From: Escherichia phage JEP6
DNA length: 64,000 nucleotides
Strand: one strand, 5' to 3'
Sequence record: MT764206.1
The first letter of the stretch is position 1, and every line of letters starts with the position of its first letter. The notes under the pieces were generated by a model. It made no database searches. It was not told the origin of the DNA and worked only from the letters and a program-made list of their open reading frames with translations. This document shows positions 2,397 through 41,823 of the stretch, piece after piece. The position numbers and the translations under genes were made by a program.

Positions 2397-2533
2397 ATAT
2401 CAAGAACCGTCATTGAAATGCAAAATAAAATTATTGAAATAAATCCATCTGGAGTGCTAAAGAACCCAATCCAACACGCTCTAGTGAATAGATAAAATGC
2501 AAGAAAAAGTATCACATATCCAAGAAATATCAT
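2393..2533 (-). CDS. small hydrophobic peptide (46 aa, MIFLGYVILFLAFYLF...)
   Basis: below 60-aa track cutoff; GGAG RBS 8 nt upstream of ATG; stop overlaps gp47 ATG (ATGA). Confidence 0.3.
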   Translation of the reverse strand: MIFLGYVILFLAFYLFTRACWIGFFSTPDGFISIILFCISMTVLDI

Positions 2534-2556
2534 TATATCAAACTCCGTATAAAGCT

Positions 2557-2574
2557 AAAGGGCCGAAGCCCTTT
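2557..2574 (-). terminator. hairpin AAAGGGC-CGAA-GCCCTTT at the 3' end of a-gt
   Basis: GC stem with tetraloop directly after a-gt stop codon. Confidence 0.4.
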
Positions 2575-3775
2575 ATTTTGTAATAATGTCAAACTGTTCT
2601 TTAAAGCAGAAGCTTGAATCTTGGTGCTGATACAAAAATTCATATGCTTTTTCTCGCTCACGGTCATAAAGAGCTCGGTCAGATGACAGTTCTTTAATAC
2701 GCTCGAATGTTGATTCCATGTCATTTTCATCAAACCAAATGATACCACTATCATGCGAGGTCAAAGGAGTATTATCAACACGGAATTTTAAATTATCACC
2801 CGTTGATTTCCAAAATACCGGAATTGTACCGCAAGCACCTAATTCAAGATGAGTATATTCGAGTGAGCGTTGTAAGTATTTCTGGTTAAGTTTACTCAAC
2901 TGATATCCAAAGCCAGATTTACTCATTCGTTCAAGCATTTCACTATTAATATAACAATCTAGGATTTGTGCCGGTTGATTCGGCGTGAGATTCATTTTAT
3001 CAATCTCACGATTACCATAATATTCATACGGAATACCTTTTTCCTTAATTGCAATAAAAGCAGGGGAACGTTCAAGACCTTCCATTACAGTGGATTTACC
3101 AGCAGGTTTTAAGAATTTTTCGTGAAAATCAAACATCTGATAAAAACCTTTCCATGTAGTCGTACGACCAATCCAACGGTTGATGTTCATGTTAATTTCA
3201 GAAACATCTTTCCAATAAGTTGACCGAACCTTCACAATATCCATAGGAGGCTGAAAATTATATACTGTTGGTGCTTCTTCAATATCATCAAACAGAGAAA
3301 CAGTTTCTGGATACCATTCTTTCATCAGAACTTTATTAAAATCGCCATTATCAGAATGACTAAAAATAACATCAGCTCGACGAACAGTTTCTTCTAATCC
3401 CAAATTTCGACGCAAAGAAAGCACAGAATGATCATGCTGATAAACTACAACACGAATAGAAGGTTTAATATTATCTAAAAGTTTTTTATAGTTATTAATC
3501 GTAGCTTCTTGAACGGAAGTAGCAGGAACAGAATTAATAATTAGAATATCACAATCATTTACCAGCTTAAGTGCTTTATCGTATTCTTTAGCTAAAATAA
3601 CTGGAATTGAAAATGATTTGTGGTCATGAGAACTTGTACGAGTAAATGATTTATCTTTAGCATAAACCAAAGTTACTTCATGACCATTTTTAATAAACCA
3701 ATCACGCTGCTCAAGAGAAAATTTAGTTACACCGCAACCTTCAAGACCCCGAGCCAGAAAAATGCATACTTTCAT
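2573..3775 (-). CDS. a-gt: DNA alpha-glucosyltransferase
   Basis: 400 aa; N-terminus MKVCIFLARGLEGCGVTKFS and overall sequence match recalled T4 AGT; position between 47 and 55. Confidence 0.85.
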   Translation of the reverse strand: MKVCIFLARGLEGCGVTKFSLEQRDWFIKNGHEVTLVYAKDKSFTRTSSHDHKSFSIPVILAKEYDKALKLVNDCDILIINSVPATSVQEATINNYKKLLDNIKPSIRVVVYQHDHSVLSLRRNLGLEETVRRADVIFSHSDNGDFNKVLMKEWYPETVSLFDDIEEAPTVYNFQPPMDIVKVRSTYWKDVSEINMNINRWIGRTTTWKGFYQMFDFHEKFLKPAGKSTVMEGLERSPAFIAIKEKGIPYEYYGNREIDKMNLTPNQPAQILDCYINSEMLERMSKSGFGYQLSKLNQKYLQRSLEYTHLELGACGTIPVFWKSTGDNLKFRVDNTPLTSHDSGIIWFDENDMESTFERIKELSSDRALYDREREKAYEFLYQHQDSSFCFKEQFDIITK

Positions 3776-6213: not shown

Positions 6214-6412
6214 AGCTAAACTTTTTGGCACCCTTCCAGCCTTCGTACATCATTGCGACTGACAATGACAAAGCTCCTTCACATGCTGCATACTTATTAT
6301 TCCAGAACCAATTTAGAAAAACTTCATCCTCAATACCATTGTGTTTCATGTTCTGGAAAAATTTGGCGCGTTCTTCACGAAGCTTTTGCGATAATTTAGA
6401 TTCAGGATTCAT
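6212..6412 (-). CDS. hypothetical protein
   Basis: ORF track 66 aa. Confidence 0.45.
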   Translation of the reverse strand: MNPESKLSQKLREERAKFFQNMKHNGIEDEVFLNWFWNNKYAACEGALSLSVAMMYEGWKGAKKFS

Positions 6413-6628
6413 TTAAATTTCCCAATTACCATTTTCATCAATAAATTTAATCCAGTCATTTACTGACCACTTGGTCGTATCGCCTTTTGGAGTAACATTT
6501 AAAGTATATAACCCCTGCTTAAAAAGCATTCGTTTGATATTCATATTTTCCTCAGCTGTAACGATAGCACTCGTTTGATTTACGTTTAGCAACTCGTTGA
6601 GAAATATTATAATCAAAATCATCGTCAA
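6413..6628 (-). CDS. hypothetical small protein; likely true start at internal ATG 6544 (GAGGAAAA RBS)
   Basis: ORF track 71 aa; upstream part overlaps neighbour. Confidence 0.4.
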   Translation of the reverse strand: MTMILIIIFLNELLNVNQTSAIVTAEENMNIKRMLFKQGLYTLNVTPKGDTTKWSVNDWIKFIDENGNWEI

Positions 6629-28652: not shown

Positions 28653-29024
28653 TCAGGAAGCTGAATTGGATCGTTTATTCAACATTCTTTTTATTTCAGC
28701 ATCGGTCATATTATAACCAAGTTCCTTAACTCTTGCTCGCATAGTAGGCAAATAATTTTGGAACATTCCGTAGGCGTGATGCTTTGGTTTAGATTTTAAA
28801 TTAACTCCGCCAGAGCTTTCTTGCCATAAAATAGCAGCCATTATATGACCTAATCCGCTCTTGTGGATATTTTTGTGTGTTTTATATTTTCCATCCTTAG
28901 AAAATTGTTCCCCGAATTGATACGCGTAACGCATGTTATCGAGTTGGACATTACTGAAAGTATGCTCGGAGCTATGTGCCATCATTGAAATGGCCAATAG
29001 ACCAGCGAGTAGTGCTTTTCTCAT
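28653..29024 (-). CDS. SLT-like lytic transglycosylase domain protein with signal peptide, terminated by an in-frame TGA; frame stays open a further 56 codons to 28479
   Basis: 123 aa to the TGA; ES (ILWQESSGG) and GMFQ motifs before the stop, YNSG motif after it in the same frame; extended frame ends in coupling overlap with next gene. Confidence 0.55.
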   Translation of the reverse strand: MRKALLAGLLAISMMAHSSEHTFSNVQLDNMRYAYQFGEQFSKDGKYKTHKNIHKSGLGHIMAAILWQESSGGVNLKSKPKHHAYGMFQNYLPTMRARVKELGYNMTDAEIKRMLNKRSNSAS

Positions 29025-29031
29025 GCTTACC

Positions 29032-29493
29032 TCATTGAGTTTTAATTACTGCTTTAGAAGCCTTTCCTGGTAAACGACGACTGTTGATAATTGCCATCCT
29101 ACATTGAAGTGACGGGTCTTTGAACTTCGCGTTAGGTTTACAAACTGTAAATCCAAGCCAAAGATTTCCATCTGTGATTTCTAGACGTCCAGGACGATAT
29201 TCAACCCCATCAATAAAATCCTCGTCAATGTCAGGACGCGGAGGCATACTCAGGAATTCATTAACTTCTAAAACATGGTCTTTTATTTTATGGAATAATT
29301 CAAAAACATATGTCTCATCAATCTCCCGTTGAATTGCGCGATCAAGAAGATGTTGAGAATATTTTAGATGAAACGATGAGACCCCTGCTGCTTTTGATGC
29401 CTCACGAATCTCATTGTTAATTTGACGAAACTCCGACTCAAAGTGACGACGAAGCTTATTTCGACGGATAAAAACTTCTGTGTTGATAGTCAT
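29032..29493 (-). CDS. regB: endoribonuclease RegB
   Basis: 153 aa; sequence MTINTEVFIRRNKLRRHFESEF... matches recalled T4 RegB. Confidence 0.85.
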   Translation of the reverse strand: MTINTEVFIRRNKLRRHFESEFRQINNEIREASKAAGVSSFHLKYSQHLLDRAIQREIDETYVFELFHKIKDHVLEVNEFLSMPPRPDIDEDFIDGVEYRPGRLEITDGNLWLGFTVCKPNAKFKDPSLQCRMAIINSRRLPGKASKAVIKTQ

Positions 29494-29520: not shown

Positions 29521-29550
29521 ATTATACCACAGTCAAGAGGAAAAGTAAAC
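29521..29550 (-). promoter_or_regulatory. T4-type early promoter (GTTTAC-N18-TATAAT)
   Basis: conserved element about 28 nt upstream of regB start. Confidence 0.6.
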
Positions 29551-29552
29551 AA

Positions 29553-29831
29553 TTATTCTTTAAATCTAATCAATTTATTCATAGACTTTGAAACTTCTGC
29601 ACGAACCTCATGTAGATTTTTGAGCTGTTCAAGACGCTGCTCATAGTAAGCAATTTCATCTTCTTCGAGACAGTCCTGTGAATCTTCTTTAAGATAACGT
29701 GCATAGTCCTGGAAAGCGTTACGAACTACTTCCTGGAAGTCATCAAGACTTTGAATTTTCTTAGGAGCAACAGATACACGACGAGGGGCAGTATAATACT
29801 CATAACCAAACCCTGCGCTTAATTGAGCCAT
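29553..29831 (-). CDS. hypothetical protein (vs.3 position)
   Basis: 92 aa from ATG 29831 (TAATG overlap with upstream stop); track start 29873 is an extension. Confidence 0.45.
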
Positions 29832-30097
29832 TAGTATTTTTCCTCTGGTTGGAACACAGCACGGCAAGCCCACATACTGGCTTCTTTGAGTTTCGTTTTA
29901 GCAATAGTTAACTGATCGAGGCTTTCGGCGTAATTCTTCGCGAGTTCACAGTCTTCACAATTATCTAGTGCTTCCCAGAATTCATCGTATAAAGCATCAA
30001 AGATAAGTCCTAAACGAACTTCAGCGTCTTTGATAGCATTCACTTTACCGATTTTCTTTTCAGTATGCGGCTTATAACCCTTAATATCTTCAATCAT
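29831..30097 (-). CDS. hypothetical small protein (vs.4 position; Acb2 candidate by position only)
   Basis: 88 aa from ATG 30097 with GAGGAAG RBS; position relative to regB and the GrcA-like gene. Confidence 0.4.
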
Positions 30098-30311
30098 ATT
30101 TGACTTCCTCACCAGTACATAAATCATATTCAACTAAACGAATAGGTTCATGAATGCCATATCCTTGAACAGAAATTTCTGTAGTAGGATAAATTCCATC
30201 AATATCGCCCATATTCCACGCTTCATTAAATTGCTGTTCGCCTGAATTACTAAACCATTCGGCGAAAGCATTTAGCACATCTTCAGAACCTTCAATAATT
30301 ATCTTTGCCAT
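30090..30311 (-). CDS. hypothetical protein (vs.5 position)
   Basis: ORF track 73 aa. Confidence 0.45.
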   Translation of the reverse strand: MAKIIIEGSEDVLNAFAEWFSNSGEQQFNEAWNMGDIDGIYPTTEISVQGYGIHEPIRLVEYDLCTGEEVKYD

Positions 30312-30673
30312 TACAAACTCTCGGTAAAGGTACGAGCGATAACGTCGCGCTGCTGTTCCGGAGTCAGAGAGTTAAAGCGAACTGCATAACCGGATACACG
30401 GATGGTCAGCTGCGGATATTTTTCCGGATGCTTAACTGCATCTTCCAGAGTTTCACGACGCAGAACGTTAACGTTCAGGTGTTGACCACCTTCAATTTTA
30501 ACTGTAGGCTGTTGCTCAATTTCAATTTCACGGGCATGCAAACCGTAGAAAATTTCTGGGTCTACAAAAGAGTCCTCTTTAAAGGTTTTAGAAACGATAA
30601 TTCGTGCTTGAATACCATCTTCAAAATAAATAGTACCTTTATGTGTGCCTTCAAGAATTTGATATGCTTTCAT
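30311..30673 (-). CDS. autonomous glycyl radical cofactor (GrcA/YfiD-like)
   Basis: 120 aa; C-terminal ~60 aa ([59 protein letters not shown]) essentially identical to recalled E. coli GrcA, including glycyl-radical RVSGY. Confidence 0.8.
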
Positions 30674-31010: not shown

Positions 31011-31546
31011 TGCATTCCGATTACGAAAAACTGCGGACGAGTAATACCACCAATACAACATTTAATATTACAGCAGCAGTGTACAGTGTCAATGTGGACA
31101 CTATAAATCTTATCCATATCAGGAGATTTGACAGGCTCATCAATTATATATAAAATTCGCGAAAGCGATAAACCTCTGAACTTGCTTCCTTTATTACCAA
31201 TAAAACTGCGCACAGAATCAGTAAATAAACGAAAACGTATATCATCATTAGAATAACGCGAAAATTCCTTTTTAATGTTATTTGCAGAAATTTTAGCGTA
31301 AGCTGAAGTATTAGAAAGAACAATAACCGTTCCGCCATCATATAACCAATTAGCAGCAAAGTTAGTCACAGCAATTGATTTACCTGATTGACGTCCACCA
31401 TCTAGTCGAAGTGTGCAATACTGTTTAAGTAAGTCTTCAAATGGTGGGACATAACCGTTCTTACAAATTTCTTCTACTCTAGCATCAGAATGGTGTGTAA
31501 AAGCATTCATCAGGGATAGATAAGGTCCAGTTAAAAATGTTCTCAT
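31007..31546 (-). CDS. small P-loop NTPase with Cys-rich C-terminus
   Basis: 179 aa; Walker A GGRQSGKS, Walker B LYIIDEP; occupies the position where T4 has denV. Confidence 0.5.
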   Translation of the reverse strand: MRTFLTGPYLSLMNAFTHHSDARVEEICKNGYVPPFEDLLKQYCTLRLDGGRQSGKSIAVTNFAANWLYDGGTVIVLSNTSAYAKISANNIKKEFSRYSNDDIRFRLFTDSVRSFIGNKGSKFRGLSLSRILYIIDEPVKSPDMDKIYSVHIDTVHCCCNIKCCIGGITRPQFFVIGMQ

Positions 31547-31627
31547 TTAGTTTCTCTTTTAGGTTGGGCCATTCCGTGGCGCATGAATTGTCCATTTCTG
31601 TATTTACCCCTCCAAGTAATTATGAAT

Positions 31628-31657
31628 ATACTATCACAATTCTAGGAGAAAGTAAAC
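31628..31657 (-). promoter_or_regulatory. T4-type early promoter (GTTTAC-N18-TAGTAT)
   Basis: conserved element between ipII stop and ORF start 31546. Confidence 0.55.
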
Positions 31658-31659
31658 TG

Positions 31660-31962
31660 TTATTTACCTTTAATTACTTTAGCTGCTTCGATAGCCGCTT
31701 GCTGAAGGTCATCCATAGACATACCGAATTTAGAAGCAAAGTTATCAATTTTCTTTTCGACAGCATTCAAAGGCTTGGCCTGTTTACCTTCATTAGCGCC
31801 AGGAAGAGCGAGAATACGCTCTTTGTCAATATAAAGGCTTACAAGTTTCTTACGGTCTTTATCGGACAAATCATGAAATGAATGGGCCTTTTTATTTATA
31901 GCGGCTTCTAATTTACCTGCACTCACTCGCGCTTCAGTAATAAATTCTTGATATGTTTTCAT
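31660..31962 (-). CDS. ipII: internal protein II
   Basis: 100 aa; N-terminal capsid-targeting sequence MKTYQEFITEA; matches recalled T4 IPII. Confidence 0.85.
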   Translation of the reverse strand: MKTYQEFITEARVSAGKLEAAINKKAHSFHDLSDKDRKKLVSLYIDKERILALPGANEGKQAKPLNAVEKKIDNFASKFGMSMDDLQQAAIEAAKVIKGK

Positions 31963-32021
31963 ATGTTTCCTTTAAATGTAAATATTTTAATTGGTAATTG
32001 ACTGTTTAAGTAACTGTGAAT

Positions 32022-32051
32022 ATATTATCACAATTCTAAGAGAAAGTAAAC
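32022..32051 (-). promoter_or_regulatory. T4-type early promoter (GTTTAC-N18-TAATAT)
   Basis: conserved element between e stop and ipII start. Confidence 0.55.
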
Positions 32052-32056
32052 TGCTT

Positions 32057-37823: not shown

Positions 37824-37900
<77 letters not shown>

Positions 37901-37903
37901 TAA

Positions 37904-38569
37904 TTAAAATTTCATTTTTCGACCTTTAAACCATCCTTCTGGAATTGGGTCAGTTTTCTTAATACGTTTAGAAACTTTTTCATCTAATGAATGAATCCAC
38001 ATCATACCAAATTGGGAATTCTTTTCGCCCTGTTGGTGTTTATTTCTGGCGTGAGATTCTTTCATTTTATTAATAGTTTCAGGAGTATGATGCTTATTTA
38101 AAAATCTGCTATTATTTAAAAATTTTTCCCTGTATTCAGGAGTTGACCACAAGCGTTTAAATACATTTGAACCATGTTTACGATATTTTTCTTGAAGTAA
38201 AATATCATTTTTAAAACGTGACTTAAACGATTTAGCTCCTTTTAAACTAGCGTCTTTCTTCTGGTTTAGCATCCCAGGAATATTTATATGATCCCATCCA
38301 CCTTCACCACCTAATTTCAAATTATAAACATCAGGGCGCTTTAAAAACTCTTCAGTCACAATATTCTTTTCTGACTCAAACATAGAGGTTTTATCGTCAA
38401 AGAACTCTAATATTTCTTTAGAAAAATTTTCTATACCATACTTATCTTGGGCTCTTTTTAATAATTTACCAGAACCCATATATCCATCATCTAAATTTTC
38501 GGTAGAATGCACACCAATATAAATTTTATTATTAATTTTATTTGTTATTTTATAAGTGTAATGGAACAT
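37904..38569 (-). CDS. segB: GIY-YIG homing endonuclease (SegB-like) within the tRNA cluster
   Basis: 221 aa; N-terminal YTYKITNKINNKIYIGV...GYMGSG GIY-YIG motif; located between tRNA-Ile and tRNA-Arg. Confidence 0.7.
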   Translation of the reverse strand: MFHYTYKITNKINNKIYIGVHSTENLDDGYMGSGKLLKRAQDKYGIENFSKEILEFFDDKTSMFESEKNIVTEEFLKRPDVYNLKLGGEGGWDHINIPGMLNQKKDASLKGAKSFKSRFKNDILLQEKYRKHGSNVFKRLWSTPEYREKFLNNSRFLNKHHTPETINKMKESHARNKHQQGEKNSQFGMMWIHSLDEKVSKRIKKTDPIPEGWFKGRKMKF

Positions 38570-38610
38570 AAATATCTCCTATTTCTAAGAGTATTTATGT
38601 TCCCAAAATA

Positions 38611-38682
38611 TGGCCCTGGGTGGAATTGAACCACCATCTGGCGATTATGAGTCGCTTGCTTGAACCTTCCAGCTACAGGGCC
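38611..38682 (-). tRNA. tRNA-Ile (anticodon CAU; lysidine-type AUA reader, Met not excluded)
   Basis: manual fold: acceptor GGCCCTG/CAGGGCC, anticodon loop CTCATAA, T-loop TTCAATT; no encoded CCA. Confidence 0.7.
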
Positions 38683-38688
38683 TTGATA

Positions 38689-38761
38689 TGCTGATTGACG
38701 GAATCGAACCGCCGACGTCCTCATTACAAGTGAGGTGCTCTACCTACTGAGCTAAATCAGC
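38689..38761 (-). tRNA. tRNA-Thr (anticodon UGU)
   Basis: acceptor GCTGATT/AATCAGC, D-arm GCTC-AGTAGGTA-GAGC, anticodon loop CTTGTAA, T-loop TTCGATT. Confidence 0.85.
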
Positions 38762-38768
38762 GAAATTA

Positions 38769-38855
38769 CGGAGGCGATAGGATTTGAACCTATGAGTCGC
38801 CGGAGCGACTGCCGGTTTTCAAGACCGGTGCATTAAACCACTCTGCCACGCCTCC
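38769..38855 (-). tRNA. tRNA-Ser (anticodon UGA), type II with long variable arm
   Basis: acceptor GGAGGCG/CGCCTCC, anticodon stem CCGGT/ACCGG with loop CTTGAAA, long variable arm, T-loop TTCAAAT. Confidence 0.8.
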
Positions 38856-38857
38856 AG

Positions 38858-38931
38858 TCTCCGTGGCAGGATTTGAACCTACGACATTCTGCTCCCAAAG
38901 CAGACGCTCTACCAAACTGAGCTACACGGAG
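38858..38931 (-). tRNA. tRNA-Pro (anticodon UGG)
   Basis: acceptor CTCCGTG/CACGGAG, D-arm GCTC-AGTTTGGTA-GAGC, anticodon loop TTTGGGA, T-loop TTCAAAT. Confidence 0.85.
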
Positions 38932-38941
38932 TAAATTAAAT

Positions 38942-39015
<74 letters not shown>

Positions 39016-39020
39016 AAATT

Positions 39021-39107
39021 TGGTGCGAGAAGTGGGACTCGAACCCACAAGGAAATCATTCCGCAGCATTTTAAGTGCTGTGCCTTTACCAATTTGACCA
39101 TTCTCGC
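39021..39107 (-). tRNA. tRNA-Leu (anticodon UAA), type II
   Basis: acceptor GCGAGAA/TTCTCGC, anticodon stem CAGCA/TGCTG loop CTTAAAA, long variable arm, T-loop TTCGAGT, CCA encoded. Confidence 0.8.

Positions 39108-41126: not shown

Positions 41127-41823
<697 letters not shown>

Follow-up and report, generated by a model that had tools for sequence, protein, structure and literature searches.

Organization of the vs.5-vs.4-vs.3 segment

We analysed a 64,000-nucleotide stretch of the genome of Escherichia phage JEP6 (MT764206.1), hereafter the window. Between regB and a gene encoding a GrcA-like protein, three open reading frames (ORFs) of 92, 88 and 73 amino acids (aa) run from ATG starts, all on the minus strand. 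The original prediction, made from the letters of the sequence, had placed three small ORFs here, and the ORFs and their Pfam-identified flanks agree with it. The genes of the segment and its surroundings are as follows.

28653-29024, minus strand: vs.1 (stop codon at 28653-28655)
29032..29493, minus strand: regB endoribonuclease gene (Pfam REGB_T4, 230 bits; 99% identity to T4 RegB)
29553..29831, minus strand: vs.3 / tadIV-1, 92 aa; predicted anti-type IV Thoeris sponge for N7-cADPR
29831..30097, minus strand: vs.4 / acb2, 88 aa; predicted anti-CBASS cyclic-dinucleotide sponge
30090..30311, minus strand: gene at the vs.5 position, 73 aa, strongly acidic; phrog_1986
30311..30673, minus strand: vs.6, GrcA-like glycyl-radical cofactor gene (Pfam Gly_radical, 67 bits)

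The vs.6 product scored below the NCBIfam cut-offs for GrcA (spare_glycyl, 154.9 bits versus a cut-off of 170). The genes had been described as joined by TAATG and ATGA overlaps; this holds for the vs.4/vs.3 junction, which is a TAATG, but not for vs.5/vs.4, where the two frames share 8 nt (ATGATTGA) rather than a 4-nt ATGA. As vs.6 and vs.5 also meet in a TAATG overlap, the coupled run comprises four genes, not three. Strong ribosome-binding sites at internal ATGs had likewise been proposed, and a Shine-Dalgarno-like GAGG does lie 9-10 nt 5' of the ATGs of both vs.4 and vs.3, with a weaker GAGAG 6 nt 5' of the vs.5 ATG. In a mechanical ORF list, the 92-aa ORF began upstream at a GTG (106 aa) and the 88-aa ORF at a TTG (100 aa). 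We take the internal ATGs to be the real starts because they agree with the annotated genes of T4, AR1 and 215Ecol030PP and with the crystallised Vs.4 sequence.

The 3 kb around the locus shares 97.5-98.0% identity and its gene order (tk.4, vs, vs.1, regB, vs.3, vs.4, vs.5, vs.6, vs.7, vs.8) with many Tequatrovirus genomes. Over 1.3 kb, the best match in the phage collection reached 98.6%, and no record there was identical. Using tblastn, we also compared the window proteins with loci from five further genera or groups, which revealed a conserved order of vs.8, vs.7, (vs.6), 73-aa gene, acb2, (vs.3), regB and vs.1, the two genes in brackets being often missing and vs.3 being represented in Kanagawavirus CIP9 by nothing but the short form (69 aa). 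The gene structure and this synteny are both established directly. Two of the loci have peculiarities of their own. In Klebsiella phage vB_Kpl_K65_evo5 (locus 2501-3497), the 73-aa homologue is followed by a GrcA-like gene and then acb2, and vs.3 is absent. In Salmonella phage STML-198 (Gelderlandvirus; locus 2724-3001), the acb2 homologue is split and annotated as fragments of 26 aa and 41 aa, possibly a pseudogene or a sequencing error.

The three ORFs are real genes and not chance frames, because tblastn finds them in 720 (92-aa protein), 1238 (88-aa) and 988 (73-aa) phage records. A nonsense change in vs.1, in the same region, and a frameshift of vs.5 in the T4 reference might be taken to mean that at least one of the three is a chance frame or a decayed pseudogene. 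All three, however, are full length relative to their relatives and have sequences resembling ribosome-binding sites, and the proteins are kept to 40-60% identity in other genera. We regard decay or chance as extraordinarily improbable, and judging by these conservation data it is effectively refuted already.

Several differences from other T4-like genomes lie on either side of the segment. In vs.1, codon 124 has changed from TGG to TGA (opal) relative to T4 and AR1, leaving 123 aa instead of 181 aa; the 57 codons past the opal stop are otherwise intact (99.4% identity in the tblastn read-through), and the change reflects either a nonsense mutation of recent origin or an error in sequencing. 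At the other end, the 5' end of vs.8 (31485-31610, minus strand) is an indel-variable spot. The sequence differs by 1 nt in length from AR1, which puts an upstream ATG at 31595, preceded by GGAGGGG, out of frame; Vs.8 therefore begins at 31546 and has 179 aa, whereas the AR1 protein has 195 aa and that of T4 219 aa. The interval from vs.8 to the lysozyme gene e (31547-32056) holds a single gene, an ipII-like one of 100 aa (31660-31962; 93% identity to T4 IPII). Neither T4 denV (endonuclease V) nor ipIII had a tblastn match within the 64-kb window.

The 88-aa and 92-aa proteins as homologues of Acb2 and TadIV-1

That the 88-aa ORF might be Acb2-like had been guessed from its position, and comparison with Acb2 bears the guess out. 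Far from lacking similarity to known sponges, the protein matched T4 Vs.4 (PDB 7UQ2) at 86 of 88 residues (E 5.1e-56), with E14K and F52L as the sole differences, and it passed the Pfam model PF24729 (Acb2_Tad1_hairpin; cut-off 27) at 69.7 bits. It is also a member of phrog_717, from which Jenson et al. gathered Vs.4 homologues (PMC10097602). According to that 2023 study, T4 Vs.4 assembles into a hexamer that takes up three cGAMP molecules with a Kd of ~30 nM. Base stacking is provided by Y8 and F82 and polar contacts come from Y8, H11, K23 and R79; S74 and T12 are important as well, and the hexamer is built by L29, A66, A73, A77 and F33 (PMC10097602). All of the pocket residues (Y8, H11, T12, K23, S74, R79 and F82, T4 numbering) and all of the hexamer-interface residues (L29, F33, A66, A73 and A77) are kept in the 88-aa protein. 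When we aligned eight sequences from five genera, with relatives that included Dhakavirus, Kanagawavirus and two Klebsiella-phage lineages, the contact residues were invariant, and contact and interface residues taken together were invariant or nearly so. Sequence identity and the conservation of functional residues are observed directly. A 2023 study by Huiting et al. is reportedly also a source on Acb2.

T4-Acb2 binds cyclic dinucleotides and not cA3, which has been attributed to Y37, A57, L60, D61 and T64 (Cao et al., PMC10312549), and these residues are unaltered here. The JEP6 protein is therefore the same as T4 Vs.4 in its cA3-excluding residues as well as in its contact and interface residues, its length and its site between vs.5 and vs.3. 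The founding Acb2 of Pseudomonas phage PaMx33 (p26; PDB 8H2J/8IXZ) is a more distant relative: it aligned with the 88-aa protein over the full length but weakly (E ~0.08), and its published identity to the T4 protein is ~24%. Both nevertheless belong to the same Pfam family, and Y11 and K26 of the PaMx33 protein have conserved equivalents here in Y8 and K23. PaMx33 Acb2 binds cA3 too, whereas T4-type Acb2 does not (PMC10312549).

Of the two substitutions, E14K adjoins the contact residues H11 and T12, two to three residues away, and replaces what is an acidic residue (E or D) in seven aligned relatives; position 52 is variable. K14 and L52 occur separately in other natural Tequatroviruses (K14 in NIC06P2, for example); the pairing of the two was absent from the phage collection searched, in which the best match was 98.9%. 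Loss of Acb2 function appears unlikely, because K14 occurs in other Tequatroviruses and position 52 varies.

T4 Acb2 is known to trigger the decoy-nucleotide defence Panoptes (PMC12657218), and by analogy the Acb2 of this phage should be vulnerable to it as well. Panoptes selects against nucleotide-binding Acb2, and escapers carry loss-of-function or pocket mutations such as F82C, none of them at position 14 (PMC12657218). Such pressure, together with a charge reversal at an otherwise acidic position near H11 and T12, could mean that the K14/L52 protein has a ligand range or affinity unlike that of T4 Acb2, for example one that avoids the Panoptes decoy 2',3'-c-di-AMP. However, every ligand-contact and hexamer residue is unaltered, each substitution is present on its own in other wild isolates, and the published escapers map elsewhere, so we consider a shift in ligand binding very unlikely and continue to read the protein as an Acb2 of the T4 type.

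The 92-aa ORF, which the original prediction left unassigned, is by homology a second characterised sponge, TadIV-1. It is identical to T4 Vs.3 at 91 of 92 residues, the single difference being T64E (residue 64 is also E in the UPEC07 and AR1 homologues), and 100% identical to the proteins of Shfl2, DalCa and 40-odd other records. In a phmmer search of PDB sequences, it matched 9WIW, the UPEC07 homologue, with 75% identity (E 5.6e-38). In a screen based on T4 x T6 mating, vs.3 emerged as the only gene of T4 that inhibits type IV Thoeris, and it was renamed TadIV-1 (PMC13243611; Chen et al., Nat Commun 2026, where 9WIW is cited). The T4 protein sequesters N7-cADPR without degrading it (KD ~216 nM) and is a two-helix homodimer with a pocket formed by a disordered N-terminal loop (PMC13243611). 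Activity was confined to forms of ~90 aa, those of ~70 aa being inactive, and required R17, R18 and K24 in T4; the criterion for the long form was >80 aa with a flexible N-terminal region (PMC13243611). The JEP6 protein is of the long form, with an N-terminus identical to that of T4, and it shares with T4 Vs.3 its length, the long N-terminal loop, R17, R18 and K24 and the site between vs.4 and regB. On analogy with the published work on T4, ligand binding, oligomeric state and immune evasion would be expected to extend to both JEP6 proteins.

PDB entry 9WIW is named 'Endoribonuclease', and several records (slur08, slur14 and BYEP01) label vs.3-vs.5 'Endoribonuclease RegB'. In the PDB entry and the phage records alike, this name looks like a carry-over from the neighbouring regB; in the PDB entry it does not denote a demonstrated activity.

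The acidic 73-aa protein upstream of acb2

The third ORF has a less straightforward counterpart in T4. The annotated T4 Vs.5 (NP_049729, 58 aa) has only its first 17 residues in common with the 73-aa protein, although the DNA of the two is ~97% identical. Alignment of the T4 reference (NC_000866, vs.5 at 6382-6558 of the locus compared) with window positions 30090-30311 revealed a 1-nt deletion in the reference after codon 17, where a C is missing (GCC to G-C) and the frame is shifted as a result. The intact 73-aa form, overlapping vs.4 by 8 nt, is present in the window, AR1, 215Ecol030PP and a re-sequenced T4 (OZ209057.1). The 73-aa form is taken to be the real gene because AR1, 215Ecol030PP and the re-sequenced T4 all encode it intact, and vs.5 of NC_000866 is probably a sequence error or a variant or strain-specific stock. 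The annotated 58-aa ORF ends ~44 nt short of the true stop, and clones made from reference coordinates would therefore lose the C-terminal ~12-15 codons.

The 73-aa protein belongs to phrog_1986 (E 9.6e-44), and its family, found in 988 phage records, is confined to T4-like phages. A profile search of 1.8 billion representatives returned only about eight small-protein clusters, and sequence and profile searches, including this one, found no cellular homologues. The protein has a net charge of -12, and charges across the family range from -8 to -14. An AlphaFold2 model built from a 13-sequence alignment (pLDDT 85.7) shows one long helix, spanning residues 10-33, and then two strands; an earlier model from 10 sequences was poor (pLDDT 64.8), and adding distant members raised the score. 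Comparisons of sequence and of fold revealed no similarity to Acb2, TadIV-1, sponges in the PDB or any solved structure. The idea that the three ORFs are diverged paralogues was rejected by hhalign, in which the 73-aa protein matched its neighbours with a probability of <1%.

The most conserved motif of the family is F-x-x-W-F-S-N-S-G-E-Q-x-F (30230-30260, residues 16-32). In the profile search, a motif of the form W-F-x-N-x-G-x-Q-x-F also matched long FG-GAP/VCBS-like repeat proteins, whose repeat unit reads D-I-A-W-F-E-N-N-G-S-Q-S-F-T-E. We rejected kinship with these proteins and regard the match as probably a coincidence of short motifs, because the segment is predicted to be helical in the 73-aa protein.

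The company the gene keeps raises the question of its role. It adjoins acb2 in all of the loci compared except that of one Klebsiella phage, an arrangement that hints at a functional link; the hint is suggestive but weak, because Tevenvirinae in general keep their gene order. The 73-aa protein could be a third anti-defence factor (a sponge, an acidic mimic or an inhibitor), which would make vs.5-vs.4-vs.3 a three-gene counter-defence cassette. Consistent with this, four of the five additional genera or groups have the gene directly 5' of acb2, in many cases with an overlap, and here the 8-nt overlap would couple the two translationally; the product is small, presumably early-expressed and confined to phages, and the family is consistently very acidic, without cellular homologues. 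Against it, the protein resembles neither sponge nor any solved structure, adjacency counts for little where gene order is so widely kept, and a GrcA-like gene separates the two genes in vB_Kpl_K65_evo5. Phage records with Acb2 moreover outnumber those with the 73-aa protein by at least 250, and when Vs.3 to Vs.8 were tested singly against type IV Thoeris, only Vs.3 was active (PMC13243611).

A literature search combining vs.5, vs.6 and regB found nothing, and neither vs.3 nor vs.5 appears in a phage transposon mutagenesis study (PMC12676376) or in one on structure-guided sponge discovery (PMC12265669). On balance we think the cassette unlikely, while leaving it a distinct chance. The same tentative weight attaches to the proposal that the 73-aa protein is an unrecognised third counter-defence protein with a new fold, overlooked because the 'Vs.5' annotated in T4 is a frameshifted 58-aa product.

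Expression and counter-defence

Three further features of the window are as follows.

29521..29549, minus strand: promoter-like site (TTTACT-17-TATAAT with an upstream TG), from a consensus scan only
37827-39107, minus strand: cluster of seven tRNA genes, as expected for a T4-type tRNA region
41130-41585, minus strand: gene 57B, encoding Acb1 (anti-CBASS nuclease; 99.3% identity to T4; PDB 7T26 'Acb1', E 4e-62)

The promoter-like site follows the stop of vs.3 and precedes the start of regB, at the downstream end of the coupled block, and the record of phage DalCa annotates a promoter at the matching place. A second promoter-like sequence, of the T4 early type (GTTTACT ... TATATT), precedes vs.8, at about 31627-31657, although matches to the promoter consensus are no more numerous in this region than in shuffled sequence. 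No minus-strand terminator-like sites interrupt the vs block. The authors who described TadIV-1 placed Vs.3 to Vs.8 under the control of 'the promoter of vs.8' (PMC13243611). Going by the consensus matches and the T4 literature, early co-transcription from vs.8 through vs.3 would be the likeliest arrangement. An Rfam scan of the whole window returned only tRNAs and nothing at vs.3-vs.5.

Taken together, the locus is very probably the T4-like vs.5-vs.4-vs.3 segment, with vs.4 encoding Acb2 and vs.3 encoding TadIV-1 in an early, coupled unit. We propose that the segment is part of the Tequatrovirus early gene cluster that extends from vs.8 to regB, and that its minus-strand genes would be transcribed together, early, from a promoter that precedes vs.8, with overlapping stop and start codons coupling the translation of vs.5, vs.4 and vs.3. 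The Acb2 hexamer would bind three cyclic dinucleotides (3',3'-cGAMP and related molecules) at its dimer interfaces and so withhold the signal from CBASS effectors; cyclic trinucleotides would presumably not be bound, as with T4 Acb2. TadIV-1, as a two-helix homodimer, would capture N7-cADPR with its flexible N-terminal loops, N7-cADPR being the activating signal for the caspase-like effector of type IV Thoeris. Early coupled expression could deliver both sponges before host signals build up. The 73-aa gene product is predicted to be a conserved, very acidic small alpha/beta protein. As the phage carries Acb1, Acb2 and TadIV-1, it encodes at least three inhibitors of nucleotide-based immune signalling.

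The biology of Acb2 and TadIV-1 is already known, because both were defined on the T4 orthologues of these genes: Acb2 (2023) and TadIV-1 (2026) were first characterised from T4, and JEP6 carries near-identical copies. For annotation, the findings mean that vs.4 and vs.3 can be renamed acb2 and tadIV-1 in database records, most of which give all three genes as 'hypothetical protein' and some of which give vs.3 as 'endoribonuclease'. The remaining interest of the locus lies in the 73-aa neighbour, the reading frame of which is mis-annotated in the T4 reference.
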